Of a stretch of 64,000 nucleotides of DNA, positions 897 through 54,096 are shown one piece after another. The stretch lies in NCBI GenBank assembly GCA_963730935.1, contig CAVSTP010000004.1, positions 800,001 through 864,000 on the forward strand, given 5' to 3'. Numbering within the stretch: the stretch's first letter is position 1; every line of letters begins with the position of its first letter. Origin of the DNA: an uncultured Nitrospiraceae bacterium (GTDB lineage Bacteria; Nitrospirota; Nitrospiria; Nitrospirales; Nitrospiraceae). The position numbers and the translations under genes were made by a program. The notes below the pieces were generated by a model. It worked only from the letters and a program-made list of their open reading frames with translations. It was not told the DNA's origin and made no database searches.

Positions 897-1001
897 CTTC
901 GTGGCGTAGCGGGCCGGCTCGTTCCTCGCCTCCGCCGTCCCCTCACCGCTGATCGCACCTCACACCGCGATGGACCTGCGCATCCGTAAAAAGTAGAATG
1001 C
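897..1001 (+). repeat. Long array repeat copy
   Basis: Core, ATCGCACCTCACACCGCGAT module and GTAGAATG end. Confidence 0.85.
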
Positions 1002-1008
1002 ACCAACA

Positions 1009-1356
1009 ATGGCTAAAGCAAGACCAAGAAGTCCTTCTCTTGCCAATCGCCGACTGATTCGCGGGAAAACGGGTGGACGATGTCATGTGTGTGGTGGACC
1101 ACTCGGTAGAAACTGGCACGCTGATCATGTAAGACCGCATGCAATAGGAGGCACCTCTTTAATTGATAACTACCTCCCATGCTGTGGAATCTGTAATCGG
1201 GCACGATGGATGTCTGGATCGAAAGTGATCCGGCGACTGTTTATGTACGGAGTCGTAGCTCGAAAAGAAATACGAGCAGGGACTACGCTTGGTAAAATGT
1301 TTTTGAAGCAAGTGAAGAAACACGTTCTTGGCAAGAGACTGCGGAATAAGATGTGA
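1009..1356 (+). CDS. HNH endonuclease
   Basis: GRCHVCG...HADHV...NYLPCCGICN zinc-finger HNH signature. Confidence 0.85.
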   Translation: MAKARPRSPSLANRRLIRGKTGGRCHVCGGPLGRNWHADHVRPHAIGGTSLIDNYLPCCGICNRARWMSGSKVIRRLFMYGVVARKEIRAGTTLGKMFLKQVKKHVLGKRLRNKM

Positions 1357-1367
1357 ATCGATCCCGG

Positions 1368-1478
1368 CAGCCGGCGCGTTCCTCGCCTCCCCGTCCGCCC
1401 CTCTCACCGCTCATCGCACCTCATACCGCGATAGACCCCGCCCACGTGAAAACGTAGAATGTCCTGGTTTCTTTGACC
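1368..1478 (+). repeat. Long array repeat copy
   Basis: CTCACCGCTCATCGCACCTCATACCGCGATAGACCCCGCCCACGTGAAAACGTAGAATGTCC. Confidence 0.9.
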
Positions 1479-1774
1479 CCGGTTGGCGCCACCCGAAAGT
1501 GCATGGCTTGAAACCAGAAGTACGGCCTGAGTTGAATTGACCCGCTGACTCTTCATAAGCAGGTCGTATCATCTCAAGAAGTCATATAGCCTTGGTGGGC
1601 GCTTCCACATGAACCTTTCGCTGGCCTCTCCTGACTCACTGGGCAGAGACCGTGAGTTTCAGAGACGCTCAAAGAAGGAGGAATCGCCACGTGGATTCTA
1701 TTCGTCATGCGCTGAAAGAGATGCAGACTAAACATACTAATCCCTGAGTCTGCGCCGTATGAAAGGAGAGAGCC

Positions 1775-2839
1775 ATGAGACCAAGTACTCGCGCAGTCAT
1801 CGTGATCGCGGGCGCACTTCTGCTTGGTGTCGGATTGGCGGGTGCTCAATCCGCGCCAGTTGCACCCCCTGTTAGAAGTCCTGCGCAAGACGACCAGCCC
1901 GCGATCACTGAACAGCCAGCAGAGTCTCGTCCAACGACGACGCCGGAACGGGAAACGGCGGCACCGGACGAGGGCCGGATCGAAGATCGAGGCGTTCCAG
2001 TCAAGCCGCTGCTCGGCGTTCCGCCCACGGCCACCGCACCTCTCAAGCTTGTGGGGCCCACAGAGAATCTGACGAAGGTTATCAATACGCTCACGCACAA
2101 ACACAAGAGTCTTACAACCGTGATCACCACCGCACCGGGCCTGCAACTCACGCAACCGGTCGAGATTAGCATCCTCTTTATTTCGCCGTGGGGGACCAAT
2201 ACGCGCCTCACGCAACCCTATCAAAATAAATTCGGGAATCGTTTTGTCTACAACGATCCCGAAGGTGAAGGCAAACTGCGGCACCTGCGCATGGATATCT
2301 GGCTGACCGAGCCCAAGCCGGATGGCGGGCACTATAGCTACTCCATGACCTGGCAGGCGGATCTTGATCCGTTGTACGACATCACGGTCAGCCCGTTGAT
2401 GTTTACATTGGTGTCCGATTGCGACACTGTTCCTCTTGTGGGAACCCCGCTCGGCAATAGTGAAATCCGATTTCATTGGGCGGATCCAGCCATTTCTGAT
2501 GGCTGGTACAACTTGTCCTTCAACACCGTGAAAGGCAGGCCTGTGTCGATCAACCAGTTCGCCTGGTCGCGCACAGAATTGAGCGCGAGCGCCGTTGCCT
2601 CCATGAACCTCCATTTACCGGCCATTCTCTGGAAGGAACATGATCCCCATCTGGGGGTCGAATATGGAGGCTTACCAACGTTTTCCAAGGTGCCGCTGCC
2701 GGCCACAACCCAGGACTTCCAGTTCGCTTTATTCCCAGGTCAGCTATATCCCGGCCCGGAAGAAATTCGGGGCAATACATGCATCGCCCGACTCCAATAC
2801 AGGATTACGCGCATCCTCCGCACGTACTCCACTCTGTAA
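1775..2839 (+). CDS. Secreted hypothetical protein
   Basis: Signal peptide, Pro/Ala-rich linker, AAGGAG RBS. Confidence 0.75.
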   Translation: MRPSTRAVIVIAGALLLGVGLAGAQSAPVAPPVRSPAQDDQPAITEQPAESRPTTTPERETAAPDEGRIEDRGVPVKPLLGVPPTATAPLKLVGPTENLTKVINTLTHKHKSLTTVITTAPGLQLTQPVEISILFISPWGTNTRLTQPYQNKFGNRFVYNDPEGEGKLRHLRMDIWLTEPKPDGGHYSYSMTWQADLDPLYDITVSPLMFTLVSDCDTVPLVGTPLGNSEIRFHWADPAISDGWYNLSFNTVKGRPVSINQFAWSRTELSASAVASMNLHLPAILWKEHDPHLGVEYGGLPTFSKVPLPATTQDFQFALFPGQLYPGPEEIRGNTCIARLQYRITRILRTYSTL

Positions 2840-2972
2840 GGGGAATCGAAAGGAAGAATCCAGATATGAAAGCCAACTAACAAGAAAAGGGGAGAGGCTA
2901 CTTTGCTAAGTGCTTGAAGATTTGGGAACCGGTGCAGGAACCATTTTGCGGCGCGTGGCGGGCCGTGTGATA

Positions 2973-3305
2973 TTACGCTGCCGCGTCATCAACCCCGGCA
3001 TGGCTGTATTTCGTGTGTTTCAATAGTGCGCCGGTCTTCCAATTGGCGTACGCGCCATAGGCATCCACGAGAATTCCCTTGAGTCCACTCGACTCTTCGA
3101 GCGCATACACAACCGATGAATCGTCCGGGTCAGACATTCCTTCGAAGCGGTGATGCTCGACAATTGTAAGGTCATCGCTTTTGAAAGTCCGGTCACCTGC
3201 AGTAAGCTGCCCGTCCTCTTTGGCAACCGTAAACTCGGTGGTGAATCCGCGCTGCCGCAACCCTTCCACCGCCTCCACCATGCTTTTGTAGACGTGAGTT
3301 GACAT
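2973..3305 (-). CDS. Small conserved protein (HRFEGxSDPDD family, often labelled phosphoribosylpyrophosphate synthetase-like)
   Basis: HHRFEGMSDPDDSSVVYA...GILVDAYGAY motif; GGAGGAG RBS. Confidence 0.75.
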   Translation of the reverse strand: MSTHVYKSMVEAVEGLRQRGFTTEFTVAKEDGQLTAGDRTFKSDDLTIVEHHRFEGMSDPDDSSVVYALEESSGLKGILVDAYGAYANWKTGALLKHTKYSHAGVDDAAA

Positions 3306-3400
3306 TGCCACTCCTCCTTGAACCTTCTTGCTTCTTTAATAGTATGGGCCAGCGACACGAGGCAAGGGACTAGCGAATGCCCGAGAGTTAGAAAGCACAG

Positions 3401-3509
3401 AGGAAGTGGGAACATTCTCAATTTCGCGCAGTGTGGCGGGCCGGCGCGGTCCTCGCTCATCCCCTCACCGCTCATCGCACCTCACACCGCGATAGACCCC
3501 GCCCACGTG
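3401..3509 (+). repeat. Long array repeat copy
   Basis: GGAACATTCT adaptor, core and middle module. Confidence 0.85.
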
Positions 3510-3602
3510 TACCGTATCCAAGCTTGCTCTTCGTGATGCATCCCTCCTCGGCTTTGCGCTAGACTGCCTCCATCAGTCTGCATTCTCAATCTGAGGCCTA
3601 GC

Positions 3603-4628
3603 ATGACAGAACCCCCCGCCGCGTCGGTCCCGCCTCATGCCCAACTGGTGCAGATGGGCACGGCGCATTGGATGTCGCATGTTCTTTACGTCGCTGCGAA
3701 ATTGAGCCTGGTCGATCATATGGCCAAGGGGCGGACACGAGTTGATGACCTGGCCGCTGTAACGAAGACTCACTCCGCTTCGCTCGGACGCTTCCTCCGG
3801 ACGCTCGGGCATCTTGGGCTCGTGACCGAAGACGGAGAAGACCGCTTCACGTTGACGCCGCTTGGTGAGGCGCTGAAGACCGGCGCGCCCGGTTCGGCGC
3901 GGGCAGCAATCCTGACGCTGGCAAGCCCTTGGATCACGAACGGATGGACACACTTACTCGAGTCGGTCCAAACCGGAAAGCCGGGATTGGACCAGACCCT
4001 CGGCATGCCCATTTTCGACTGGCTAGCAAAGCATCCTGAAGAAGCCTCGCTGTTCAGCGAGACCATGGTGAGTTTTCATGGAGCCGAACCGGCGGCAGTG
4101 GCCGCGGCCTACGATTTCTCCACGATGAAGACGGTCATAGACATTGGCGGGGCAACGGGGAATCTCTTGGCTGCGATTCTCGCTCGATATCCTGGCTTGC
4201 GCGGCATCCTGTACGATCTTCCGCACGTTGTTCGTGATGCTCCGGCCCTGCTGGAGGCTCGTGGAGTGACTGATCGTGCAACAATCACGTCCGGCAGTTT
4301 CTTCGACCGTGTGCCAAGGGGTGGCGACGCGTATCTGTTGTCGCACATCATTCACGATTGGTCTGAGGCGCAGTGCCTGACAATACTGGGCCACTGCCGG
4401 AGCGCCATGGCACCGTCCAGCCGCGTCCTGATCATCGAAATGGTCCTGCCGTCCGGCAATGCGCCACATCCCGGCAAGATGCTCGACATGATGATGCTCG
4501 TCGGTCCCGGAGGCCAGGAACGGACCGAGCCAGAGTATCGCACGCTTCTCAGCAAGGCTGGGCTTCGGTTGACCAAGGTCGTGCCCACGAATTCTGCCGT
4601 AAGCGTCGTGGAGGCAATGATCGCCTAA
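3603..4628 (+). CDS. SAM-dependent O-methyltransferase (dimerisation + Methyltransf_2)
   Basis: IDIGGATG, YDLP, GSFF, HIIHDW motifs. Confidence 0.9.
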   Translation: MTEPPAASVPPHAQLVQMGTAHWMSHVLYVAAKLSLVDHMAKGRTRVDDLAAVTKTHSASLGRFLRTLGHLGLVTEDGEDRFTLTPLGEALKTGAPGSARAAILTLASPWITNGWTHLLESVQTGKPGLDQTLGMPIFDWLAKHPEEASLFSETMVSFHGAEPAAVAAAYDFSTMKTVIDIGGATGNLLAAILARYPGLRGILYDLPHVVRDAPALLEARGVTDRATITSGSFFDRVPRGGDAYLLSHIIHDWSEAQCLTILGHCRSAMAPSSRVLIIEMVLPSGNAPHPGKMLDMMMLVGPGGQERTEPEYRTLLSKAGLRLTKVVPTNSAVSVVEAMIA

Positions 4629-4651
4629 TTATTAAGCCGCAGAAGGAGCGA

Positions 4652-4846
4652 CAAGAAGAAGGGGACACGGAGGGAGAGAAGGTGTCATCAACTATTTCGC
4701 GGCGCGTGGCAAGCCGGCGCGTTCCTCGCTTCCCCGCCCCGTTCCATCCGATCGCTCATCGCACCTCACACCGCGATAGACCCCGCCCACGTGAAACCGT
4801 AGAATATCCTCGCTTCTTCCATAGAAGTCAGACTCGAAAGGCGGTT
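4652..4846 (+). repeat. Long array repeat copy with distal GAAGTCAGACTCG module
   Basis: Adaptors, core, middle module and GTAGAAT. Confidence 0.85.
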
Positions 4847-4983
4847 AGGTCTTGCAATCCAACAAAACAGATGACGCTTTGAAAGATCTCGCTGAGAGGC
4901 AGACGATCGCAGGAGACATAGAAGCCGCCAAAGCAACTGCATCCCAAATCACCTACTTCAATTACCGGCGGCAAGTCTGGAGA

Positions 4984-5162
4984 ATAAGAAAGGGGACAGG
5001 CTACTTTACTAAGTGCTTGAATGGTCTTCCACGCTTCCTTAAGGTCGATTCTAACCTCAGTGCCACAGCGGTGATCGATCGCCACGAGTTCGTCCCAAAC
5101 GGCTGTTGTCGATTCACACACGTGCGCACCGCCCTCAATTCATGATCAAACAGGGCTCATCG
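4984..5162 (-). pseudogene. 3'-terminal fragment of RAYT transposase
   Basis: Near-identical (about 4 differences) to 9444-9624. Confidence 0.9.
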
Positions 5163-5506
5163 GGGATAAGAAAAGGGACAGGCTACCTTTCTAAGTGCTT
5201 GAAGAGTTTCGAAGTGGTGCCACCAACCATTTCATGGCGCGTAACGGGCCGGCTTACTCACCGCCCCTCCCAGCAGGACATCTTGCGGACTCCCCTCGTT
5301 GACGTCGTTTCTACCGCGCTCTGCATGCCGGTCTGGATTCGAAGATAAATTTGCCTTATCCTGCACGGCTAAACCTGCTTAGGGAGTATCTTCGTTGAGC
5401 TCCGACCCAGCGTTCCGATCGCTCTGTATCCGGGAGACACTTGCCTATCGAACCTAGGAGGTTGTTGAGACGACCTATGGAATGAACCGGTCAGGGGAGG
5501 TGCACC

Positions 5507-6445
5507 ATGAAGCTGAATAAGCTTGCAGGCGTGACGTTCGGGGCAGCAATCGGCCTTTTCCTTCTCGGATCAGAACGCGCGCTCACTCAGCCTCAGCAAC
5601 CACTCGTCGGTTCCGGATTTGACCTGGATTTTCACAAGAGACAATTCCCGTCAGGAATCCCCGTGGCAGATATCCTGCCTGTACCCGGTCGAAAGACGGA
5701 AAGCGGTCCCAATATTCCTCTCCCACAGGACCATTTCGATGTTACGACTGTCGGACCGGTGGAACCGATTCCGAAGATCGGCTTGCAGGGGTTGGTTCTC
5801 GCTTCTACCCAGCCGGATCTCGTCATCCGGGGGCTCAGTTTCACCCCGGAAGGGAAGGTCCGCTACTTCGTCCTCAACCTGAGTACCCAAGCCGTCGCCC
5901 CTCCCTTTGTCGTCGATCTACTCTACAACGGTCAGCGGCGCGATACAGTCAAACACAACGGTCTGCCTCCGCTCAGTCAACAACGCGTGGAGTCCTCATT
6001 GGCCAATCCGGGTGGCTGCGCAATTGCACAACTCCGTGCAATTGCAGATACACAGCAGACCGTGGCGGAGACGAACGAAGCCAACAACACGGAGGTGAAT
6101 TCACAAGTTCCACCCTGTCCCGACCTGATCGTCCACATCGAGAAGGAGGAGACGGACACGCTTCACTATCGTGCGAAAATCAAGGTGACCAACAAGGGAA
6201 ACCGAGCAGCGGGCAGACCGTTCATCGTGTTTGCCCGTGAATCGAGCGGACCGGCGGGCTATATCACCGTGCCGCCGGCAGAAAAGCGGATCGACGATCT
6301 TGAAGCAGGGGCAACCACGAGCTTTCACTATGGCGGCAATCATCTGAAGACGTCGGCGGTCGGCTATCATGCCATTGTGGACCGTTTTGACGACATCAAG
6401 GAATCCGATGAGACAAACAACAATGTTTCGAAAACGCTGCCGTGA
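5507..6445 (+). CDS. Secreted CARDB-domain protein
   Basis: Signal peptide; two PDL...ETNEANN / ESDETNN CARDB-type repeats. Confidence 0.8.
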   Translation: MKLNKLAGVTFGAAIGLFLLGSERALTQPQQPLVGSGFDLDFHKRQFPSGIPVADILPVPGRKTESGPNIPLPQDHFDVTTVGPVEPIPKIGLQGLVLASTQPDLVIRGLSFTPEGKVRYFVLNLSTQAVAPPFVVDLLYNGQRRDTVKHNGLPPLSQQRVESSLANPGGCAIAQLRAIADTQQTVAETNEANNTEVNSQVPPCPDLIVHIEKEETDTLHYRAKIKVTNKGNRAAGRPFIVFARESSGPAGYITVPPAEKRIDDLEAGATTSFHYGGNHLKTSAVGYHAIVDRFDDIKESDETNNNVSKTLP

Positions 6446-6744
6446 GGGAACCATCCACTAATGAATCACATCTGCGAGACGATCTTCGTCCCAGCTGCAA
6501 TTCGTATCTGCGGATGAATGAACCATTTCGCGGCGCGTGGCGGGACGCACGTTTCCGCGATTCTCCGCCTCGCTCCTCCTACCGGAGCCGCGCACGCTAC
6601 GCCAGCATTTTCACTGCAAAACAAAGTAGCCTGTCCCCTTTTAACCCCACACAGCACACATGGTCACTGGTTTCCACAACTGACTTGGTATATGTTCTGC
6701 GCCTGCGGTTTCAGAACACGACTTCATCTCAGGGGAGACTTACG

Positions 6745-7251
6745 ATGAACATCAGATACCTTATCCTGTGGCTAGCGCTAGGGCTGGTCACCGCCGGAGG
6801 CTGTTCGAAGGTGAAGGAGATGTACGAGGATAGGAGGTACGAGATCAAGGTACGCACGAATTTCGACGAGTCCATCGACTTTTCTTCGTTTCATACCTTT
6901 GCCCATTCGGGGATGACGGACAGAGGACGAAAGATCGCGGCCACTGACAACAAATCGCCCTTGAGGACGAGGATCAAGGAAATCGTCAACAAGCAACTCG
7001 TCGCCAAGGAACTTCGGCAAGTCGGCTTGGAAGACCGCCCAGACCTGCTCGTAGATTTATTGTTCGGCATGATGGATGCCGATAAATATCAGGAAGCCAC
7101 CTTGGTAGTGAATCTGGCTGAATCGTCGAAAAAGAAGCGGGTGTGGCAGGCCGTGATTACCGAAACGGTGGGAGAGAGCTTGGAGAAGAACTTTGAATCG
7201 GTCGACAAGGGAGTCGCTAAGGCATTCAAAGACTATCCCCCGGCCAAATAA
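6745..7251 (+). CDS. DUF4136-like lipoprotein
   Basis: Lipobox AGGC; DFSSFHTF, PDLLV, VWQA and YPP termini; GGAG RBS. Confidence 0.7.
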   Translation: MNIRYLILWLALGLVTAGGCSKVKEMYEDRRYEIKVRTNFDESIDFSSFHTFAHSGMTDRGRKIAATDNKSPLRTRIKEIVNKQLVAKELRQVGLEDRPDLLVDLLFGMMDADKYQEATLVVNLAESSKKKRVWQAVITETVGESLEKNFESVDKGVAKAFKDYPPAK

Positions 7252-7255
7252 AGAG

Positions 7256-7418
7256 AAGAGAAACGGGACATTCTGCTTTTTCTAATCCATAAGGAACCAT
7301 TTCGCGGCGCGGGGCGGGCCGGATCGTTCCTCGCCTCCCTGCCCCTCCCCTCTCCCTCACCGCTCATCGCACCCCTCACACCGCGATAGACCCCGCCCAC
7401 GTGAAAAAGTAGAATGTC
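7256..7418 (+). repeat. Long array repeat copy
   Basis: GGGACATTCT adaptor through GTAGAATGTC. Confidence 0.9.
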
Positions 7419-7521
7419 ATAGTTTCTTTCTCATGCTCGGCACTATGGCATCAGGAATTTTGGACAATCGCGACATAAGTTGATTCACGCGACGCCGGCC
7501 ATCTAGCTCAGAGAGACCACT

Positions 7522-8307
7522 GTGTTGGTGCACATCATCGCCGATTACGGAATGGGAGACCTCGCGTTCGCCGAGGTCGTCCAACGGATCAAGGTGCATT
7601 TGCCCGACATGGAACCAGTATTGACGCCTGTCCCGGCTTTCTCCACAATCGCGGCCGGCTTTTGCATCGCACAGATCGGCCTGCATCCTTCGCCTCCAGG
7701 TACGCTCATCTATCACAACGTGGCCCCGCGGGAAGACGATCCCGCCGCCCGTGCACAGAACGCCGGCGAGCGCCTCGCTTACGCACGTCTGCCAACCGGC
7801 GTCCGCGTGATCGGGGTAAACGCAGGACACGCCCTTTCCTTTATAAAGGATGTGGCCGAGAAGCTCCGCTGGGCAGCCTCTTCGGCCGAAGGAAGCCAGT
7901 TTCGATCACGAGATGTGTTTCCTCAAGCGGCGGCAGCCATTGCGCTGGGCCTGCCCGCCGCTTTGGGTAACGACCTCGATCCCGAAAGCATTCCTTCGCC
8001 TCCCGTCTCGGCGGTGGCATATGTAGACGGCTACGGCAACCTCAAGACGACCATTGCCTACGACCCGAATCGAGTTCGACCCGGCAAGCGGATCACCGTG
8101 CGGATCAACGAGCGTCAGCATGAGGCCACGGTCAGCGATGGGGCGTTCGCCGTGCCTCACGGCGAACTGGCATTCGCACCGGGCAGCAGCGGTTGGACGC
8201 TACGTGATGGAAGCAACGTGCGCTGGGTAGAGCTCTTCCTTCGAGGTGGGAACGCCTGGAATCTGTTCGACCGTCCGGCGCCAGGATCGTTCATCGCCAT
8301 CCACTAA
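7522..8307 (+). CDS. SAM hydrolase / SAM-dependent halogenase family (DUF62)
   Basis: IADYG, QFRSRDVF, YVDGYGNLKT motifs. Confidence 0.8.
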   Translation: MLVHIIADYGMGDLAFAEVVQRIKVHLPDMEPVLTPVPAFSTIAAGFCIAQIGLHPSPPGTLIYHNVAPREDDPAARAQNAGERLAYARLPTGVRVIGVNAGHALSFIKDVAEKLRWAASSAEGSQFRSRDVFPQAAAAIALGLPAALGNDLDPESIPSPPVSAVAYVDGYGNLKTTIAYDPNRVRPGKRITVRINERQHEATVSDGAFAVPHGELAFAPGSSGWTLRDGSNVRWVELFLRGGNAWNLFDRPAPGSFIAIH

Positions 8308-8391
8308 TGCGCCTATAGTCTTCACGTGTAGCCCTTTGATCCCAGATCTCAAAATAATCGGCATTTCACAGTTGCCAAAGAATGGTTGAGA

Positions 8392-8543
8392 GGAATCATT
8401 TCACGCCGCGTGGCGGCCGGCTCGTGCCTCGCCTCCTTGCCCGGACTTCACCCCTCACCGCTCCTCGCACCTCACACCGCGATAGACCCCGCCCACGTGA
8501 AAAACGTAGAATGTCTTGGTTTCTTTGACCGAAGTGAGACTTG
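8392..8543 (+). repeat. Long array repeat copy
   Basis: Core, middle module, GTAGAATGTC and GACCGAAGTGAGACT. Confidence 0.9.
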
Positions 8544-8608
8544 ATCCGGTTAGGTGAGATCACTTCCCGACGCGTCGAGAATTCTTACATGATAGGACTG
8601 ACAAGATC

Positions 8609-9421
8609 ATGAATCTAAGACTTGAAGGCAGAAGAGCATTAATCACGAATGTCACTGGGCCTATCGGAGCGAGCATTGCCCAAGCGTTAGTCCATGAAGG
8701 CGTTGCTGTCGCATTGCATGGGGATAAAGAGGAAGTGAGTCGTATTGTTAGAGAAATTATTGCGAACGGCGGGAGGGCCAGTTGGACTACTGGGGACTTG
8801 GGTACAGACGAGGGAGTTGCGCACGTCATAGATCGAGCCATGGTGGAATGCGGTGGAATCGACATTCTTATTCATAACAGTAAAGTGCTGCCCGAACACG
8901 GATGGTTACATCAGCCTCCTGAATATTGGAACGACTTGTACAATCAGAATGTTGTATCTCTTGTGCGCCTAGTACGCATGTTGGAGCCACATATGCGGCA
9001 ACGGGGATGGGGCCGGGTAATTTTAGTGCCAGGAGGAAGGCAGCGGCAAACCAATGATATAGCAGATCACTCCGTTACCGACGCTGCAAACATCAATGTG
9101 ACAATAAGTCTCGCTCATGAGCTCGCACGAACCGGTATTACGGTGAATACGATAACGCCGGGGGTCATTGTGACGAACGATTCGGAGCAGTTTTGGCGCA
9201 AAGTGGCTGAAAAGCATGGATGGACTGGTGACTGGAAGGAAATCGAAGAACGTCTCTGTGACGAAGTATTATATGGTCCTACCGATCGCCTCGGGCGAGC
9301 CGAAGACGTCGCAACCCTTGTCGCCTTTGTCGCAAGTCCGGTTGCCGACTTCATTAACGGTACAAATCTGGCTGTAGATGGCGGATACACCGCTGCTCTT
9401 CGGCATCTCGCAATGCACTAA
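8609..9421 (+). CDS. SDR family oxidoreductase (degenerate motifs)
   Basis: GRRALIT, GITVNTITPG, NGTNLAVDGG. The YxxxK motif is not evident. Confidence 0.8.
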   Translation: MNLRLEGRRALITNVTGPIGASIAQALVHEGVAVALHGDKEEVSRIVREIIANGGRASWTTGDLGTDEGVAHVIDRAMVECGGIDILIHNSKVLPEHGWLHQPPEYWNDLYNQNVVSLVRLVRMLEPHMRQRGWGRVILVPGGRQRQTNDIADHSVTDAANINVTISLAHELARTGITVNTITPGVIVTNDSEQFWRKVAEKHGWTGDWKEIEERLCDEVLYGPTDRLGRAEDVATLVAFVASPVADFINGTNLAVDGGYTAALRHLAMH

Positions 9422-9461
9422 AAGGAGAAAGAGTCATACCAGGATAAGAAAAGGGGACAGG

Positions 9462-10112: not shown

Positions 10113-10120
10113 GGGCGCGG

Positions 10121-45234: not shown

Positions 45235-45716
45235 GATGAACCTCCATGTAGTCAGCAGATTGGAAGCCGCTCGTCTTGCTTGCTAAGCACGTGATGACAA
45301 GATAGACGGCAGCGGGGAAACTTCACTACAAGGAGTCAGTTGGAGGATCGGTCTGAGAAGGGCTCGACATATAGCGATGATGTTCCTTGGCAGGCATGCT
45401 GAGGCCTAATAGGTCTGATTTTACATCAGGACTCGCAAAACTTAAGCCAGCCGCTACATAGGGTAAATGAACCAGTTTCTCGCGCGTTAAACCATTGTCT
45501 GTCGTGGATATGCTGCAGACCGTGTGCACAACTGTTGGTTTTTTGCTTGAGGCACGCCAAGCCTAGTCAGCTTTTCTCTGACTTCAGCACAGACCACACT
45601 TGTGGAGCCAGACCGAATAGAAGGGGTCGTTGGTTTGTAGAACCATTCGCGACGCGTGGCGGGCATTTCTAAGTTACTTCCTTGGATGGAATCTGTGACT
45701 GGCCTGAACGGCCGCT

Positions 45717-46169
45717 TTACATTCTACGCAGTGAATCTACAAAAAAATCAATCTGAGCGTCAGCCCTTTTAAGAAAAAAGCTCCTGTTGACATATAACTC
45801 TTCTTTCAAACGAGCGGCATGTTGCTCCGATATACCGCCTATATTCATCTTGTGCAGGTCCTCACACCGTTCGTTAGACACATACGCCTTCACTTGGTCC
45901 TTCAACTCCCCGGCTAAGGTGTCACTGAAAGGAATCTGAAGCTCCGAAATCAATTCGGTCTGTAACACCACCGCAGCCGTTATGATTTTCTTCACAAGGT
46001 GAATGTCGACTTGACTCCGAAGCCCTGCTGTAGAAGAGGTGGATACTTCCCCGCGTCGAACAGCGTCAGCATCGGCTTTTGAGAATTCAATGGACGACTC
46101 TTTCCTCAGTTCGACAAGCTTTGATCTCATCATTTGCTGAAATCGATTATTAAACATCTTCGGAAGCAC
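45717..46169 (-). CDS. Hypothetical protein
   Basis: 150-aa ORF with GGAGG upstream of a GTG start. Confidence 0.55.
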   Translation of the reverse strand: MLPKMFNNRFQQMMRSKLVELRKESSIEFSKADADAVRRGEVSTSSTAGLRSQVDIHLVKKIITAAVVLQTELISELQIPFSDTLAGELKDQVKAYVSNERCEDLHKMNIGGISEQHAARLKEELYVNRSFFLKRADAQIDFFVDSLRRM

Positions 46170-46425
46170 TTTCGGTTACCTCCTGGAACCAGCTTACAAC
46201 AGCGATAGGATCCTTGCCACACCGACCAGTCTCATGTTGTTCAAGAGGACAGGCGGGGACAGCCTACTTTACTAAGTGCATTCCGCGGCGCGTAACGCTT
46301 TCCTGCTCAACTTTTCCCCACAATCGCATTGGGATGAAGAATATTGCTCTGACTTTGCGGTAGATTGGACCACGCAGGCGCAAGCCGGGCCATTGCCTGT
46401 TCCTCATACCCAAAGGGATCAATCC

Positions 46426-46920
46426 ATGCGCTGCATGTCTATGCTCGTGTTGACTGTTGCAAACCTCATCGCGGCCTCCCCTGTCTACGCACTCGATGTC
46501 TGCTCGCTGGTTTCTCGATCAGAGATGGCCGCTGCCATTGGCGAGGCAATTTCCTCCGCAAAGCTCGACGGCCCAGATGAGGATCAAGCCAGCGGTTCAC
46601 AGGCGTGGACGTGTACCTACGGTTTGGCCAAGGGTGTCCTGGTTGTGAGCGTGGCAGAGTTTGCCTCTACTAGTGCGGCGAGAAACTTTGTGACCTTGGA
46701 AAACCTTCAAAAGGAATTGAAGGATGTACAAATCCAAGTCACGGAAGAGAGTGGTATCGGGGATCGTGCATTTCTGCTTACCGATGAAGAAGGCATCACC
46801 TTAACTGTCCTTAAAGGGGCCAGGTACTACGCCGTGACAGCAGGAGGGCACAAGTTTCCGCCGGATCGCCTGAAAGCCTCGCTACGAAAGATCGCCAACA
46901 TACTGCTACCAAGGCTCTAG
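46426..46920 (+). CDS. Secreted DUF3558-like protein
   Basis: DVCSLVS...CTY...GIGDRAF. Confidence 0.65.
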   Translation: MRCMSMLVLTVANLIAASPVYALDVCSLVSRSEMAAAIGEAISSAKLDGPDEDQASGSQAWTCTYGLAKGVLVVSVAEFASTSAARNFVTLENLQKELKDVQIQVTEESGIGDRAFLLTDEEGITLTVLKGARYYAVTAGGHKFPPDRLKASLRKIANILLPRL

Positions 46921-47161
46921 CCGTAACCCCGGAGTGTTGCGATCAGATGTTGACACTCTAGGTCCGAAAATTTCCCGGTGCGAGGCGGGCCGGCACATTC
47001 TTCGCTTGCCCTCCCCGTTCATTCCATAGCCTTTAGAGAGGTGCCTCTCTACCTCAGCGCAATGGAATCTCGCATTGCTTCCGATCATCTCAAGATACTA
47101 TGATGCTTCCCAAGGCTGCTCATTGATGAGGGCCATCCATTCGATAGCTAGGAGGATGCAC

Positions 47162-47692
47162 ATGCGAAGCATGCAGAAAGTCGCTGGGTTCGTGGTCGCG
47201 GCCGTAGTCAGCGGAGCCGTCTTGCTGGGAACGGCCAGCTTAGCTGTAGCGGATGAAAAAGGGAAGGGACAGGAAGCGCACAAACACTTCAAGGGCGAAG
47301 TCATCGAAAAGGGCGGCGCACTGGCCATTAAAACACAAGAAGGGACCACTTACCAGCTCAGTGAAAATGAGGCACGTCGCCAAGGTCGCGCGTTCAAAGT
47401 CGGCGACAAGGTCGAGGTGTCGGTCAACGAGAACAACGCCATCGTGGACGTGCACCTGGAAGGAGAAAAGGCCGAGCATAAGTTTGTGACGGGAAAGCTC
47501 GTACACGTTGGCAAAATGAAGAAAGAGATCAAGCTGCAAACGGCGGAGGGCGACCAAACCTTTCCGCTCCTCCTGCAGGAGACGAAAACCGGAGGCCTTG
47601 CCGAAGGAACAGAAGTCACTGTTGAGTTGAACGAGGCAGGAACGGTCATCGATTTGCACAAAGGCAAGCACGTTAGTCAAAAGAAACAGTGA
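47162..47692 (+). CDS. Secreted hypothetical protein with duplicated OB-fold-like repeats
   Basis: GDKVEVSVNE..AIVDVH / GTEVTVELNEAGTVIDLH. Confidence 0.75.
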   Translation: MRSMQKVAGFVVAAVVSGAVLLGTASLAVADEKGKGQEAHKHFKGEVIEKGGALAIKTQEGTTYQLSENEARRQGRAFKVGDKVEVSVNENNAIVDVHLEGEKAEHKFVTGKLVHVGKMKKEIKLQTAEGDQTFPLLLQETKTGGLAEGTEVTVELNEAGTVIDLHKGKHVSQKKQ

Positions 47693-47727
47693 CCCACGCC
47701 AAAGCACTTACCTGCTTCTGAGTTTAG

Positions 47728-47777
47728 AAAACACACGCCCCGTCACGTGTCATAAGGCGTGACGGGGCCCTGTTTTT
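47728..47777. terminator. Bidirectional intrinsic terminator
   Basis: 11-bp stem GCCCCGTCACG/CGTGACGGGGC with A and T tracts, between convergent genes. Confidence 0.7.
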
Positions 47778-47810
47778 CGAGGGTCAATGGGATGAAAAAT
47801 GGATCGAGGA

Positions 47811-48161
47811 TTACAGCCGGCACTGATCCTTCGAAGGAATGCAGCAGATCATCTGGACCGGGGCGCTGGGATCCGCCATAAAGCAGTGCTGCTCGTTCGG
47901 AGCGATGTAGACTGAATCCCCAGGCTTGAACAGTGTTTCTTTTCCTTCTGCTCGCACCCGTCCCGTTCCTGAAATAATATAGACTTCGTGCTCCCAGGCA
48001 TGCGTGTGGTAGGGCGTGGCGGCGCCTGCCGTCACGTCGAAGACTCGCATGGCGAAGGTTGGGGCACCGTCCTGCGCCGTGATCATCTCGCGAACCTGTA
48101 CACCGTCAGACAATCCCTGATACCTGCTTGGCGAGACATCGTTATAGGATTTGATTACCAT
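47811..48161 (-). CDS. Cupin domain protein
   Basis: HTHAWEHEVY, PNEQHCF. Confidence 0.85.
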   Translation of the reverse strand: MVIKSYNDVSPSRYQGLSDGVQVREMITAQDGAPTFAMRVFDVTAGAATPYHTHAWEHEVYIISGTGRVRAEGKETLFKPGDSVYIAPNEQHCFMADPSAPVQMICCIPSKDQCRL

Positions 48162-48231
48162 CCGTCCTCCCTCCACACGACTCAGTCATGAGATATCTTT
48201 GCCGTTCCGTCCGCGCGAACGAGGTATCCTT

Positions 48232-48543
48232 TCACGAAGAGCGGTTCTCCCTTGTTTCTCGGATAGCTTCTTTGCCCGCCGTCATGGCAGCTTCGACATC
48301 GGCCTGCCTGTTCGTCACGAAGGTCTTGCTGCGTTCAATGACGTCGTCGAGTGCAACACGCACTTCTTTACCTGCCTTGATCAAGTCTTGCAGCTTCTTC
48401 TTCGCGTAGTCTTCCAATTCCCATCGGGTTTCTTGCCCTGACTTATCGGTCAAAAGAATTCCGGCAATGGCACCGACCACGACTCCTCCGAGAAAGGTGA
48501 TGAATAGGACTGGTCCTGAATGCCTGACGTTCTGATTGTCCAT
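48232..48543 (-). CDS. YtxH domain protein
   Basis: FLGGVVVGAIAGILL..KSGQETR. Confidence 0.8.
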   Translation of the reverse strand: MDNQNVRHSGPVLFITFLGGVVVGAIAGILLTDKSGQETRWELEDYAKKKLQDLIKAGKEVRVALDDVIERSKTFVTNRQADVEAAMTAGKEAIRETRENRSS

Positions 48544-48734
48544 GTTTATTCCTCCATCAGCTTCATTTTCGCCGGCCGGCTTGAGGTGTATAGCTATTCT
48601 ATGACTTATTGACAATAAATAGTAACGGGGCAGAACAAAGCCTCTGACTCTTAATCGGCGGGGAGGAGGGGTTTGTTTTTCAGAGGGTACTGACTAGTTA
48701 CCAGAGTTAGTTTGGTGATTTGAACCGTTAACGC

Positions 48735-49427
48735 CTAGCCATTGTCTTTCGGCATGGCGGCAATGAAGGAATCGGCTTCTTGAATGGACGCGTTTAGATC
48801 CTTAATGAGTGAATTGATGTTCCCTTCCACCGAGACCAGTTCGCCTTTTAATGACGCGATTGCTTGAGCGTTCAGGTTATGCTTGAGAAAAAGAACCTGG
48901 TCTTTGAACTTTGCCAATACCGGATCCATTTTAGACTCCGCCCGCTTCATGGCTTTGATCAATTGCGCATAGTGAGAGCGCGTCTGTGTCAGTTGCTCTT
49001 GGCTCTTCTTGCGCAACGCGGAACTAGAATACTGCTTGAGTTCGGCATTCCATTCCGTAAATAAAGCTTCAGACACCTCTTCCACAGACGCAATTCGATT
49101 TCGAACCGCTTTCGCTTTGGCTTCGCTCCGCTCGTATTCGGTATTCAGGGCCTCGTATTTCTCCTGTAACTCCCCGCCTTGGATATCCAAGGTTTTGGAG
49201 AAGCGGTCGAGAGCCGATTTGAATTGCTCTTTGGCTTCCTGCTGAGCGTCACGGGCTTTTTCTACATCGCGGACCATTAGGTCGCGCTTGTGATAGCCAA
49301 ACTTTTCCATCGTTTCATAGTAGGCTGTCTGGCAACTCAATCCGGTAAGACTGAAGAACACAATCGCATATGTCAGGAGAAAGGGCCGTCTGCGAACATG
49401 TGATGGAGAATATTGAAGATGCGTCAT
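48735..49427 (-). CDS. DUF2959 family lipoprotein
   Basis: YY..MEKFG.HKRD, VLFLKHNLNAQAI. Confidence 0.85.
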   Translation of the reverse strand: MTHLQYSPSHVRRRPFLLTYAIVFFSLTGLSCQTAYYETMEKFGYHKRDLMVRDVEKARDAQQEAKEQFKSALDRFSKTLDIQGGELQEKYEALNTEYERSEAKAKAVRNRIASVEEVSEALFTEWNAELKQYSSSALRKKSQEQLTQTRSHYAQLIKAMKRAESKMDPVLAKFKDQVLFLKHNLNAQAIASLKGELVSVEGNINSLIKDLNASIQEADSFIAAMPKDNG

Positions 49428-49740
49428 GTCATCCTGTGCTAACGGTTCACGGTCAACGAGGGTACTCTATCACAACGCGCGCAGCAGCTTGTAGGTAGCC
49501 CCTTCGCTCAGACACCAATCAGGCGCCGGGAATCCTTGTTACGGAAGCATTTCGCGGCGCGTGGCGGGCCGGGTTCTCCATCTTTCTCATCACGTCCACT
49601 TCTCGCCGTAGAACTTTCTGCTTCGAAACCGTAGAATGCCACGTCTCTTGGACTTAGAAGAACCCAATGGCTCGTTTCACTCCCGTTTGTAGCAGGGCCT
49701 CATCTCACCGCGCGCTGCTCGCAGACAACAAGGAGGCAAT

Positions 49741-50301
49741 ATGAGTCTATACAAGAAATTCCGGATGAGGCCTCTCGTGGTTGGGTTGGCTATTGCCGTC
49801 CTTCGATTTGCTGGTCCCGCAAACAACGACGTGATCGCAGCAACGCTGCCTAAGGATCCCTGCGCGCTGCTCAAGCCCGCCGCGATTCAGACAGCCCTGG
49901 ATCCGAACAACAACATTGGCAGTGGAGTTCCGGATACCGGCATGCTTCCTATTGGTGTCGGCTGTACATACACGTGGGGACCCAGAACTAACGAATGGGG
50001 GCAATCCGCTCTCACAATCACCGTTATCGACGCATTGAAAGCCTGGCAGGGTCGTAGCCCCGATGTGATCCAGGATGGACTCCTTGCCAAGGCAAAAGCT
50101 GGTGGGCCGAACGCATCGCAGATTTCGGGCGTTGGCGACGCAGCGCTGTTCACCTTCGAAGCTCGTTCGTCAAATGCTACGGTAAAGGCATACTTCAAAG
50201 CAAAAGCCATCCATCTGTCGCTGATATTCCATCGAGGCGACTCTCTTCAAACCAAGGATAAAGTCATCGCGCTTCTGAAAGAAGCAGCAGCGAGGCTGTA
50301 G
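49741..50301 (+). CDS. Secreted DUF3558-like protein
   Basis: DPCALL...CTY...GVGDAA; GGAGG RBS. Confidence 0.65.
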   Translation: MSLYKKFRMRPLVVGLAIAVLRFAGPANNDVIAATLPKDPCALLKPAAIQTALDPNNNIGSGVPDTGMLPIGVGCTYTWGPRTNEWGQSALTITVIDALKAWQGRSPDVIQDGLLAKAKAGGPNASQISGVGDAALFTFEARSSNATVKAYFKAKAIHLSLIFHRGDSLQTKDKVIALLKEAAARL

Positions 50302-50424
50302 CATACGAAGGCGGAGAAATAGAGGGGGTCGACAATCTTTTCCCGATCAGAGGGGAAGAAGAAATGGTGCCAGAAACCATTTCGCAGCGCATGGCGGGCA
50401 GATTTTCTTCGTTTCTCTCATCCC

Positions 50425-50874
50425 GTGCAATGCTTTAGCAGTTACGAAATGATGAATACGTCGCAGGCCAGACTTTATGGTGTTTTTCTCGCACTTCTGG
50501 TCATGCTGAATTCAGAAACGATCTGGGCGCAGACGAATGATACATCGCCTTCCGAAAATTTCGTGGCCAGCGATATGATCGCATCCCGTAGTCAAATATC
50601 TGCCTGGTGCGGCACATTCGCGAAACCCTGGGATCATGATAGCCAACCGGAGGTAAAGTACGGGAAGGTGCGGAATGACGTCACCGAAAAACCGGATATC
50701 AACGGCATGATGGTGGCTGAGGATATGCGGTGCCGTCAGTGCCACGGGAAATGCGAGGCCGACAGCCTGAGGTGCCGGAGTCAGTGTTTGAGCGATAGCG
50801 CCTGCTTAGTCCATTGTGAAGAGCGGTCAAGCAAGTGCACCGCCAGGTGCAAGGAACTATTTCAGTGCCAGTGA
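50425..50874 (+). CDS. Secreted Cys-rich hypothetical protein
   Basis: CxxxC repeats at the C-terminus. Confidence 0.6.
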   Translation: MQCFSSYEMMNTSQARLYGVFLALLVMLNSETIWAQTNDTSPSENFVASDMIASRSQISAWCGTFAKPWDHDSQPEVKYGKVRNDVTEKPDINGMMVAEDMRCRQCHGKCEADSLRCRSQCLSDSACLVHCEERSSKCTARCKELFQCQ

Positions 50875-51023
50875 CAACCATCTCGCGGCGCGTGGCGGGC
50901 CGGTGTCATAGCGCGCCTCTCACTTGATAACCCATCAGCCAGCCTAATAACGCGTGGTTGACCGCCACTTTCAGCTCGGTGCGCTGCGCATTCGGCACGC
51001 ATCAACAGGTATCGCTGCGCAGG

Positions 51024-51401
51024 CTACCCAGCCTTACGTTGCACCCGAGCCGCATTGTATATACCGGTCAGATACTTCATGAGTTTCCGGGACGTATGTC
51101 TATCCAGCTTGAGAAACTCAACACCCAATTGATGGCGTCGTACTACCCACCGAATGGCGACGGCGGGTATCTCCAACAGCTCAGCCTGATTGGGGATCGT
51201 CAAAAATAATGTCAGGTGGTCATCCGTCTTCACGAGAGCAACGGTCTCAATTAGTGCACCGCGCATCGACAAATTCCTGACGACTCCCATGCCTTCGATT
51301 TCTATTCCTTCAGGAGTCAGCCCTAAGAACTGCACATCCATCTGAACCTCGAAGCGGGCTGAGCCTATCCTTGTTCTCTTGGACTTCACTGGTTGCTTCA
51401 T
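51024..51401 (-). CDS. PilZ domain protein
   Basis: R...RF, NLSMRG, GVEF. Confidence 0.8.
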   Translation of the reverse strand: MKQPVKSKRTRIGSARFEVQMDVQFLGLTPEGIEIEGMGVVRNLSMRGALIETVALVKTDDHLTLFLTIPNQAELLEIPAVAIRWVVRRHQLGVEFLKLDRHTSRKLMKYLTGIYNAARVQRKAG

Positions 51402-51714
51402 CACATCTCCTCTGATACCCACAGCTTTCTCCGCGGGATGGGGCATCGGTCAGGCGTCACCACTAATAAGCGTACCACCGTGCGGCCAGAAGGATAGATA
51501 AAACAGCTAATCTTTACAGCGATGCCAAAGGAATAGGTTAGTTTCAAGGCTCGCCTCAAGCGGAGCAAGGTATGCGCGAGCCATTTCGGAGCGCGTGACG
51601 GGCTCCCTTTTACCTCTCCACTTCATTCCCTCTCACCTGCATAGATCAAACCTATCAGAAGAAGTAGAATACACACGCTTTCTGCCTCTCAACGGATTAT
51701 TCAAGGAGGGCGCC

Positions 51715-52008
51715 ATGGCTACATATCTGATGCTCCTCAATTGGACGGATCAGGGGATGAGAAATATTAAGGAGTCGCCGAAGAGGATGGATGCAGCGAA
51801 GAAGCTGGCCAAAGACTTCGGAGGGGAGATCAAGACTGTCTTTATGACGCAAGGGAGTTTCGATCTTGTCTTCGTCGCTGAGATGCCCAATGATGAGAAA
51901 GTGGCCGCCTTCGTGTTGAAGCTTGGCTCATTGGGAAATGTCCGGACCACGACGCTCAAAGCCTATTCGGAAGACGACTATCGGAACATTATTGGCGGTC
52001 TGAACTGA
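51715..52008 (+). CDS. GYD domain protein
   Basis: WTDQG...GSFD...GNVRTTTL. Confidence 0.85.
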   Translation: MATYLMLLNWTDQGMRNIKESPKRMDAAKKLAKDFGGEIKTVFMTQGSFDLVFVAEMPNDEKVAAFVLKLGSLGNVRTTTLKAYSEDDYRNIIGGLN

Positions 52009-52144
52009 ACGTCGGTGAGCAGGAACAGCTTTCAGGAACCATTTCGAGGCGCGTGGCGGCCCGGCTCGTTTTCTCGAGATCTAGCTCCCATACCATTCCT
52101 GATCGATAGAAACCTACCGGACCTTCAGTACATTGTCCGCCGTC

Positions 52145-52273
52145 ATGTCAGACAATATTCTCTCTAAGAGCAGCAAATCACTGAATTTGTCTCAGCCAAA
52201 CCATGTGCGGACGCTTATTCTTGTTGGATGGATCCTCCTCATAATCGTCTTTGCAGCTTTCCTTGGTGGATAG
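52145..52273 (+). CDS. Possible 42-aa single-TM protein
   Basis: Manual translation: MSDNILSK...LILVGWILLIIVFAAFLGG. Confidence 0.3.
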   Translation: MSDNILSKSSKSLNLSQPNHVRTLILVGWILLIIVFAAFLGG

Positions 52274-52407
52274 AATCTCCTCAATGGAGGCGTGTGAGAT
52301 GGATCCCACTCCTTGATGTGCTCCTATTCACCATATCGGCCTTCGATCGCGGTCAAGTCTTTGGCTAGGCTGAGAGCACGAAAAGGGGACAGGCTACTTT
52401 GCTGAGC

Positions 52408-52851
52408 CTAGCGATCAAGTCCGCTCTTTCGAATGTCGTCTGCATCCGGCTTGTTGGGAGGAGTGAGTTCAAGCCAGTTGAAAGCCTCTTCTGGAGTCTC
52501 AAAGGTCTTGATAGTCATCCCAAGATTCACTGCTACGGTTTCCCCGTACCTTCGCGGGTCACGAAGAGGTTCATTGATAAGATATGCAAACCGTGGAGCA
52601 CGGTACATTGGGTATCTCGCCATAAGCTTCATAGTTTCTGTGGCCGCGAAATAGCCATAGTAGAATCGCTCGATATGTTCGGGTTGTCCCTTCAGGTTCC
52701 GACCATCGAAGAGTACTTTCTCGGCCTGGTATTGGGCAACCGCAGCAAGCATTTCTAGGAAGGCCCGTTTTGCCTCTTCCAGCGAGAACTCCCCCCTTGC
52801 ATCGATAGTGAGAAGACCTGATTCAAAATGGATCTCCTGCTGCAAACCCAT
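52408..52851 (-). CDS. Hypothetical protein (STAS/SEC14-like)
   Basis: VLFDGR, ETVAVN.G, F...EEA..WL. Confidence 0.7.
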   Translation of the reverse strand: MGLQQEIHFESGLLTIDARGEFSLEEAKRAFLEMLAAVAQYQAEKVLFDGRNLKGQPEHIERFYYGYFAATETMKLMARYPMYRAPRFAYLINEPLRDPRRYGETVAVNLGMTIKTFETPEEAFNWLELTPPNKPDADDIRKSGLDR

Positions 52852-53051
52852 TTTTTCAATATCCTTGCTATCAATTGTTATGGGCTTTGATTTGAAAGTA
52901 AAGAACGGATACTCGCTTGATACCGCTTTTAAGGGTCTAATCTTAAAAAACTAGGGGAAACGTTAGAGGGGTTTGTACGAAAAAGAGAATGGGGACATTC
53001 TATATTTCGGTATGTCTTCCTTGCCCCTTCCCCTTCGCGTACGATCTCCTT

Positions 53052-53939
53052 ATGGCAGATCAGAACTCACAGCTGACACCCGGCACGTTGCAAGCCTCCC
53101 TATTGGAACGTACGGCCAGCGCGCGCCGGTGCGGAGCGCTAGCATTCCTGCCGACCACTACAGAAGTGATCGAGCAGGACGGCATCCCCTTCCAGGTGCG
53201 TGTTCTAGAATCTTCGGCCGTAGAAGAGATCGACAAAGCCGCTCGATCGAATGTCAATCCGTTTCCGCACGATCCCGATCTCTTCGTCACACCAATTTCG
53301 GCAACCCACATCGCCTTGATCAACAAATTCAGTGCGGTGGAACACCATCTGTTGATCGCTACGAGATCGTTCGAGGATCAGCGATGCCAACTCACACAAA
53401 AAGACTGCGAGGCCCTCCTCATAGGCCTCACGGAGATCGACGCGCTCGGCTTCTACAACGCGGGACACGAGGCCGGAGCCAGCCAAACGCACAAACATCT
53501 GCAATTGATGCCGCTCGACGCGGCAATCGCTCCACTGCCCATCGAGCCACTCCTGCGCTTCGCTCAGACGGACCGCATGATCGTACCTCGCCTGCCGTTC
53601 CACCACGCCTATGCCGCAATGGATCACGACTGGACCAATCCGGGAAAGGACAGTGGGGCTTCCTTGCATGCTTGCTACCGCAAGGTCCTGCACGCGGCCG
53701 GTCTATCTGTTGACGCCACCTCGGGCAGTCATGGACTGACCGCTCCGTACAACCTTCTCATGACTCGAAGATGGATGTTGGCCGTGCCACGGTTGCACGA
53801 ATGCTTCCAGGGCATCTCGGTCGATGCCTTGGGGTTTGCAGGAATGTTCCTCGTGAAGGATAGACAGCAACTCGCCACGCTGCGGAGATTCGGTCCGATG
53901 GCCGCCCTTCAGCATGTAACAGGTAAAGATAGGCAGTGA
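53052..53939 (+). CDS. ATP adenylyltransferase / Ap4A phosphorylase II family
   Basis: NPF, NKF, FYN.G..AGASQ.HKHLQ, YNLL. Confidence 0.85.
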   Translation: MADQNSQLTPGTLQASLLERTASARRCGALAFLPTTTEVIEQDGIPFQVRVLESSAVEEIDKAARSNVNPFPHDPDLFVTPISATHIALINKFSAVEHHLLIATRSFEDQRCQLTQKDCEALLIGLTEIDALGFYNAGHEAGASQTHKHLQLMPLDAAIAPLPIEPLLRFAQTDRMIVPRLPFHHAYAAMDHDWTNPGKDSGASLHACYRKVLHAAGLSVDATSGSHGLTAPYNLLMTRRWMLAVPRLHECFQGISVDALGFAGMFLVKDRQQLATLRRFGPMAALQHVTGKDRQ

Positions 53940-54096
53940 GAATGAGACGCCAGCAGGAAAAAGAAACGGAGACATTCTGCATTTCGTGGCGCGTGGCGGC
54001 CCGGCATCTTACCCCCTGCCACTCTCCCCTCGGCATAGACCCGACCCCCCAACAAACGTAAAATGTTCCCCTATTCCAGTCCCCGACAGGACCAGC

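Follow-up and report, generated by a model that had tools for sequence, protein, structure and literature searches.

A putative weak sigma70-family promoter, probably built from a transposon end, in the shuffled cassette array of a Nitrospiraceae bacterium

The 64,000-nucleotide stretch of an uncultured Nitrospiraceae bacterium considered here (genome G000, contig C4:800001–864000, hereafter the window, in which position 1 is C4 800001) lies in a polarised and reshuffled cassette array of ~100 kb, where repeated junctions separate cargoes of one or two genes each. A subset of these cassettes has, at the 5' end, a junction with a motif pair whose −35 element (TRGACY) lies 17–18 nt inside a linker and whose −10 element falls within an inverted copy of a TIRYT terminal inverted repeat (TIR). 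The pair is best explained, in our judgement and with reasonable though not high confidence, as a weak cassette-borne promoter of the sigma70 family exapted from the TIR, so that about a third of the cassettes probably start with a putative weak promoter built from a transposon end. It appears mostly to travel with its own gene, as a property of the cassette rather than of a platform. In the mechanism that we propose for this integrase-free array, a TIR end would have been exapted as a −10 element and would now be kept for transcribing a co-oriented cargo gene. The module would be cut or decay in front of cargo that is inverted or carries a promoter of its own, and a homogeneous version of it would have spread among unrelated cassettes of this lineage by recombination between junctions.

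Three parts make up each junction: a terminal repeat of the TIRYT type, the core, which is fixed, and a right module, which varies. The array covers the whole window (1..64000, forward strand; C4 ~798.9–902 kb by core copies), for which a hand-curated list of 61 junctions was used. In one example, on the forward strand, a left TIR of the GGGACATTCT class (7265..7282), a TIRYT terminal repeat type that also flanks a Y1 gene at locus L191, precedes the core TTTCGCGGCGCGTGGCGGG (7300..7318), the exchange point of the cassettes, and the right end (7403..7420) is an inverted TIR that holds the −10 element and pairs with 7265–7282 on folding. TIRs from no fewer than four subfamilies adjoin this one fixed core, which has 57 copies on the forward strand and none on the reverse strand of C4 790–910 kb (≥15 bits) and 71 copies genome-wide. 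Among the 55 cargo genes, 17 are inverted.

The motif is concentrated in the array and polarised with it. The pattern T[AG]GA[ACT][CT]-N17/18-TA[GA]AAT occurs 16 times on the forward strand and never on the reverse strand (60 shuffles gave a mean of 0.08 and a maximum of 1), and the array holds 22 of the 26 genome-wide matches to T[AG]GA[CT]N-N17/18-TA[GAC]AAT, every one of these 22 on the forward strand. A generic promoter scan of positions 1–20000 returned 18 sites versus 9.3 expected, seven of which are these motifs. The preliminary description of this sequence had likened the right end of the repeat to a sigma70 promoter. That likeness is borne out by the −10 type of the host, the spacing, the substitutions among orthologues, the orientation bias and gene starts that lie 6–10 nt behind the −10 element without a Shine–Dalgarno (SD) sequence, while the promoter function itself is a prediction from these features.

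A host promoter model was derived from 1283 upstream regions outside the array, seeded with TTGAC/TA---T, and its 450 called sites follow TTGACA-N17/18 with TAGAAT as the top −10 hexamer (25 of 450). In an unseeded check, TTG stood at N17 and N18 in 66 and 45 of ~370 cases, respectively, versus 1–14 at spacers outside 16–18. The tRNA-Gly gene has TTGACA-N17-TAGAAT and the tRNA-Met gene TAGACA-N18-TAAAAT, and the −10 hexamer of the motif is of this host type (T-12, A-11, T-7). When 56 modules were anchored on their −35 element and A-tract alone, TANNNT followed at N17 in 36, at N18 in 7, at N16 in 1 and at other spacers in 2, and the distance from core to −35 element varied between 30 and 219 nt. 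The −35 element matches TTGACA at four of six positions, with four host cases at N17, and its non-consensus −34 base would make the promoter weak, like the integron promoters PcW and PcH1 (TGGACA). No other candidate promoter of ≥5 bits lies between the −10 element and the start in 11 of 14 genes (two of these 11 being too short to scan), and in two orthologues of the gene at 22732 the start codon lies 10 nt behind the −10 element.

Orthologous cassettes provide the evidence on whether the module is portable, as had been claimed. In five blastn-defined sets with 19 copies (four further sets, chosen for a visible −10 element, were excluded), the −35/−10 pair travels with its own gene, whereas in this lineage a homogeneous version has spread over unrelated cassettes. 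The −10 element reads TAGAAT, TACAAT, TAAAAT or TACCAT, with T-A---T and the spacing kept in all 19 copies, while its third position is not G, which breaks a GTAG, in 8 of the 19, and no copy retains an intact TIR tag GTCCC. Identity amounts to 99% at four −35 positions, 62% over the first ten spacer bases and 54% upstream, the −10 identity figures being partly selected. For four other cassettes (22732, 51715, 54097 and C4 872 kb) relatives have a different promoter or none. A second class of pair, TRGATA-N17-TA[CG]ACT, which lacks a TIR and has a conserved spacer of its own, is found at 30455–30483, at C4 878.9 kb and at loci of the genomes G040, G055 and G116.

The claim that the pair favours co-oriented genes was confirmed in the window, where it is present before 15 forward-strand genes and one reverse-strand gene and absent before 23 and 16, respectively (Fisher's test, p = 0.012; 6 of the 61 junctions were left out as ambiguous). 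Module-bearing window junctions alone gave 15/1 versus 4/5 (p = 0.012). With automatic gene calls, the counts were 15/1 versus 4/10 in the own array and 44/9 versus 21/16 in other genomes (p = 0.009), where filtering gave 32/3 versus 10/9 (p = 0.002). Loss before minus-strand genes takes the form of truncation in the spacer, not of point change, and three of the four co-oriented genes behind a module without a −10 element have another candidate nearby (3560 and 29831, ≥9 bits; 13500, 6.9 bits). That each repeat supplies a promoter, as had been proposed, cannot be upheld, because the pair is found in 18 of the 61 junctions and before 15 of 38 co-oriented genes; among co-oriented genes without the pair, 8 of 26 have another promoter of ≥9 bits.

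Several observations weigh against a promoter. Outside the array, TRGA-N17 forms no spacing peak (14 versus 12–27), whereas TTGA does (39 versus 6–23); inside it, TRGA stands at 24 + 4 versus 0 + 1 for TTGA, and the −34 base is T in just 3% of the 56 right ends. G-13 is kept in 68 of 73 copies and the A-tract is conserved, compared with 5 of 32 and 0 of 32 host promoters, and both features are TIR heritage. ATAGACY also ends the hairpin modules of relatives, where a −10 element stands behind 3 of 39 copies, and T-12 is lost in 7 of 73 right ends. The pair at 19875 and nine copies in relatives precede minus-strand calls. Since the copies are related, the p-values overstate the bias; moreover, the automatic gene calls are noisy (L041 was miscalled), and across four filter settings the test weakened to p = 0.05–0.12 in the own genome, with p = 0.0003–0.004 in other genomes. 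Finally, one contrast that speaks for a promoter, in which right ends (n = 56) differ from left TIRs (n = 53) in T-12 (50/56 versus 10/53), a −35-like box (44/56 versus 1/53) and an intact TIR tag (12/56 versus 29/53), may stem from TIR subfamilies and not from selection.

The alternative that survives best, which we nonetheless hold to be fairly unlikely, is that the pair is no promoter and that GATAGACY and the GTAG-bearing TIR are two transposase or recombinase binding sites 23 bp apart, their promoter likeness being a by-product. The preliminary description had already raised transposase binding around GTAG, and this has a factual basis in that TAGAAT sits in the inverted TIR, within a true TIR type (L191). 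The conserved G-13 and A-tract, the near absence of T at −34, the missing TRGA-N17 peak outside the array and the 36 of 39 ATAGACY copies in hairpin modules without a −10 element fit such sites as well. The candidate enzyme is a TIRYT-like Y1/HUH tyrosine transposase (9462..10112, reverse strand), the sole PF01797 match of the genome, with fragments at 5004–5153 and 38327–38389. Its gene is flanked by inverted repeats with the GGGGWSAS tag, namely a TIR that fits GGGGWSAS at its 3' end (9453..9468) and an inverted TIR at its 5' end (10154..10173), both given on the forward strand. The protein has the HUH and Y---NP motifs and a Pfam match to Y1_Tnp alone, with none to a helix-turn-helix (HTH) tail, and reaches 73 bits with NF047646, under the cut-off of 80. 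The repeats flanking homologous Y1 genes (28 loci, after two unpublished ones were excluded from 30) include GGGGACAGGCTAC, GGGGACATTCT, GGTGTCAGGAACC and GGGGTCGGGAGTC, and the TIR types at these loci are the elements that precede the cores. The right end AAAAGTAGAATGTCC equals the inverted GGACATTCT type and, thus, the −10 element is TIR-derived.

However, other TIR types stand at the same place without GTAG. It is broken in 8 of the 19 orthologous copies mentioned above, all 19 of which have lost the TIR tag, and T-12 is dispensable, since one end of a real TIRtron reads CAGAAT. Aligned with the E. coli protein 4ER8, the resident Y1 protein keeps W94 but carries Q95E, E100S, H101F and R104Q, so that four of the five GTAG-reading residues differ. 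Furthermore, a binding site would be indifferent to the direction of the cargo gene, and the genome G135, which is 95% complete and has 27 core matches, gives no PF01797 match. Both TIRs are found in certain junctions (7265–7420), and copies are almost confined to the array. A reading of the module as the inward promoter of the transposase itself was rejected, given that in TIRYT promoters TTGAC/TTGCA lies immediately inward of the TIR, on the opposite strand. The outer TIR end is partly duplicated in tandem in the window (10159–10200) and at L180, L181, L183, L197, L199, L200 and L202; these duplications begin at the GGGGWSA tag, which suggests a nick there. A second TIR cluster, in both orientations and without cores, lies at C4 1464–1507 kb.

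A promoter exapted from the TIR has also to be set against neutral common descent, in which one TIR-derived repeat was amplified, its promoter likeness is due to chance and the bias comes from capture or deletion instead of selection. Many window copies are near-identical, the loss before minus-strand genes is by truncation and the statistics rest on related copies, all of which agree with this explanation; we nevertheless regard it as unlikely, as the four −35 positions are far more conserved in orthologous sets than spacer or upstream bases, indels are frequent upstream of the −35 element and not in the spacer, and distal cassettes from which the rest of the module has gone still retain pairs. 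Very improbable is the strong form of the preliminary description, in which every repeat is a platform element that gives a promoter to any cassette behind it, as a distributed Pc, for although at least eight unrelated cargoes of this genome stand behind one homogeneous module, which replaces the version of relatives at 22640, the junction counts already largely refute it, shared blocks start at the cassette −35 element in the 92.3k, 11020, 70099 and 37499 sets, which assigns the promoter to the cassette, and there is no integron platform. As for the factor that would read the exapted promoter, RpoD is the likeliest, and a second RpoD-like or an RpoS-like factor is possible; we take the genome to have both of the latter, from classes read in their sequences.

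All 15 pairs listed previously have correct coordinates, hexamers and spacers. The pair at 19875..19904, described as a TAGAAT exception, is actually TAGACC-N18-TAAAAT; a minus-strand gene follows it, and homology to relatives begins only after the motif. All features below are on the forward strand. TAGACC-N17-TAGAAT is found at 1432..1460 (a forward gene lies 314 nt behind, with a second candidate promoter between), 4777..4805 (a gene remnant behind), 7387..7415 (the sole candidate promoter of a SAM_HAT-like gene), 22640..22668 (for this gene, relatives carry another version, which is nearly leaderless) and 37499..37527 (two orthologues keep the pair with unlike spacers). The N18 form occurs at 8483..8512 (before an SDR gene), 11020..11049 (before a DUF6010 gene, whose homologues have N17 with TAAAAT three times and TACCAT) and 31143..31172 (before a two-component cassette). 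Other −35 variants at N17 from TAGAAT are TGGACC at 971..999, with the ATG of an HNH gene (1009) 9 nt behind the −10 element, no SD and an orthologue with TAGACC-N17-TAAAAT; TGGACT at 28560..28588, before a truncated forward start; TAGATC at 37954..37982 and 51642..51670, of one leader family, the latter before a GYD gene; TGGAAC at 43513..43541, with a SnoaL-like ATG (43548) 6 nt behind, a leaderless position; and TAGAAC at 49609..49637. TAGACC-N17-TAAAAT precedes a patatin-like gene (54036..54064). Three pairs had been missed, namely TAGACC-N17-TAACAT (26811..26839), the degenerate TAGCCA-N16-TAGCAT before a methyltransferase (20805..20832) and one at −1041, just upstream of the window. As to the statement that nearly all pairs precede forward genes, those at 4777 and 28560 do not precede intact ones. 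The 18-nt spacers arise where a homopolymer is longer by a single A or C; frameshifts in the assembly, together with N17 in all four homologues of 11020, suggest that some N18 may be assembly errors. The ATG in TAGAATG was considered as a start codon at 11048 and for the HIT gene, and was rejected at 11048 because the Pfam match agrees better with a GAGG-TTG start.

Modules cut inside the spacer are found at 12635..12660 (a minus-strand remnant behind, with the junction type of 19026), 13918..13945 (a minus-strand AsmA-like gene) and 19026..19050 (a minus-strand gene). At 18325..18350 the module is cut before the −10 element and joined to the next TIR, and at 28744..28770 the −10 element is internally deleted; minus-strand genes follow both, a GYD gene in the latter case. 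Among the copies before minus-strand genes that had been stated to lack TAGAAT, 2965 and 43900 are core-only, so that no module was there to be lost. A module with a −35 and no −10 element, followed by the class-II promoter of the cassette with its −10 TAGACT at 3560–3565, lies before an O-methyltransferase gene (3493..3565), the G040 orthologue reading TAGATA-N17-TACACT; the class-II pair at 30455..30483 is TGGATA-N17-TACACT, without TIR context.

Comparison with relatives shows that cassettes are exchanged as units at the core and that the exchanged unit runs from core to core, promoter included. The window has 73 distinct blastn blocks (≥300 nt) in common with relatives, and none of them crosses a junction, where random placement would predict 31; among the 68 blocks not at a locus edge, 16 end inside a core (1.9 expected) and 32 more end ≤100 nt before one. 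A single shared block is inverted, and neighbours across a junction are never kept together in relatives. Gene-centred conservation explains part of this respect for junctions. In the one genome searched, no protein exceeded the TIGR02249 cut-off for integron integrases, the best matches being XerD and XerC; no tyrosine recombinase lies in or beside the array, where PF00589 matches nothing from C4 737 kb to 983 kb; and no attC-like fold was found in 17 window junctions folded on both strands, where only the junction with both TIRs gave a z below −2. The comparison with a distributed Pc is, therefore, an analogy at most. A role of the Y1 enzyme as the necessary recombinase is not supported, as 25 of the 28 TIRYT loci are without a core within ~1.5 kb; several array-rich genomes have no close Y1 homologue.

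The arrays of G093 (C54) and G135 (C5; L014–L019) and the loci L056–L058 have another right module, an imperfect hairpin of 60–100 nt directly behind the core (33 copies; mean z of −2.9 on the top and −2.5 on the bottom strand), which is absent from the G000 array and is a candidate single-strand recognition site. Within the window, duplicated junction and gene-end fragments (12635–12760/19026–19160 and 4981–5160/9442–9625) and fragments of the Y1 5' end (6590–6640, 13490–13510 and 38327–38450) appear to be traces of recombination inside the array.

In family-wide tallies, which include the unpublished genomes G006, G053 or G076 (nothing else claimed here depends on them), the core is present in 57 of 151 genomes and a near-identical right module in 9 of 151. 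GTDB holds 114 exact core matches; among the 80 matches listed, 70 are titled Nitrospira, Nitrospiraceae or Nitrospirota, and the ten others, without TIR context, look like chance. The array occupies the same locus in G001, G077, G129, G040 and G118 and other loci in G055 and G116. The core is on the C-rich strand in all seven genomes checked, and cargo orientation opposes the local gene-strand bias. A tRNA-end att site was rejected, the nearest tRNAs being at C4 767 kb and 968 kb, and no CRP-like, sigma54-like, dif-like or Chi-like reading fitted the core or the module when compared by eye with consensus sequences. At the leading end (L001:13816–15155; C4 795.8–797.2 kb), defence genes come first, with a TIR-domain (ThsB-like) and a caspase-like gene ahead of the HIT, HNH and methyl-directed nuclease-like cassettes; beyond the upstream defence-type genes lie two housekeeping genes, presumably for radical SAM proteins by their cysteine motif. 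Core or module copies outside the array, solitary or paired, lie at C4 535.8–536.4, 273.6, 4.6 and 738 kb and at C3 20.7 and 54.5 kb, certain of them close to tRNA genes. An inverted cassette (43905–44794) carries, as in superintegrons, a RES-Xre/MbcA toxin-antitoxin pair, which is common to G133 and G121, and a lysine/arginine-rich open reading frame of 77 aa (13626–13859) has its own candidate promoter. Frameshifts in ppk (60432–62637) and in housekeeping genes (L001:10600–13300) point to homopolymer errors in the assembly.

No earlier description of the array or the promoter was found in the full-text literature (main texts, mostly of non-subscription papers) or in Rfam, which gave 0 matches; the supplementary files of the two papers on TIRYT may include loci from Nitrospira. 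Repeat-borne and cassette-borne promoters are known and, thus, the promoter alone is a modest result. Its importance lies in its setting, a polarised, family-wide array that is led by defence genes, has a conserved locus and undergoes reshuffling at a fixed core with no integron integrase. As a tentative and wider proposal, the array may be an undescribed, integrase-independent cassette system of Nitrospirota, with excision and insertion at a fixed core of ~19 nt on a defined replication strand, TIRYT (HUH) repeats marking the ends and the TIR serving as a built-in, deliberately weak promoter by which captured genes would be expressed anywhere. If the core is a recombination site, this would be a second route to integron-like gene capture, and would moreover offer TIRYT transposases a role open to testing and illustrate how an array can overcome the silent-cassette problem without Pc.

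[quoted passage not shown] The two are alike in being short TIR-bounded repeats with a sigma70-like promoter (putative in the present case) that can drive a neighbour, as PMC10969869 describes for Neisseria Correia elements and others. The TIRtrons/TIRYT (Di Nocera 2013, PMC3733652; subclass 2.1, Quentin 2018, PMC6006769) share the Y1/HUH gene between GGGGWSAS inverted repeats, their recognised tag, and TIR families as repeated DNA. They differ in that subclass 2.1 has a C-terminal HTH, for which the present protein gives no Pfam match, and here at least four TIR subfamilies on one core punctuate a gene array and a TIR end forms a putative −10 element, neither of which is mentioned in the accessible parts of those papers. 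REP/RAYT systems are represented by E. coli TnpA-REP (PDB 4ER8), a distant homologue of the Y1 protein (E 2e-4), and GTAG occurs in two TIR types; however, no GTAG-hairpin REP is found here, there being no hairpin in the window junctions, and most of the GTAG-reading residues differ. Integron arrays (PMC2791841; Vibrionaceae superintegrons, 10.1101/2023.11.21.568050) are likewise polarised, with shuffled one- or two-gene cassettes and internal promoters, and TGGACA-N17 is described in the former as the functional but weak −35 element of PcW and PcH1. The present array differs from them in the absence of IntI, of an attC-like fold and of a single platform Pc, and in its inverted cargo genes (17 of 55). 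Compared with the promoter cassettes of superintegrons, as described in 10.1101/2023.11.21.568050, the putative promoter here lies in the junction-proximal end of gene-bearing cassettes. By analogy, the motif resembles both the internal promoters of superintegrons and MITE-borne promoters, and would be a member of neither.

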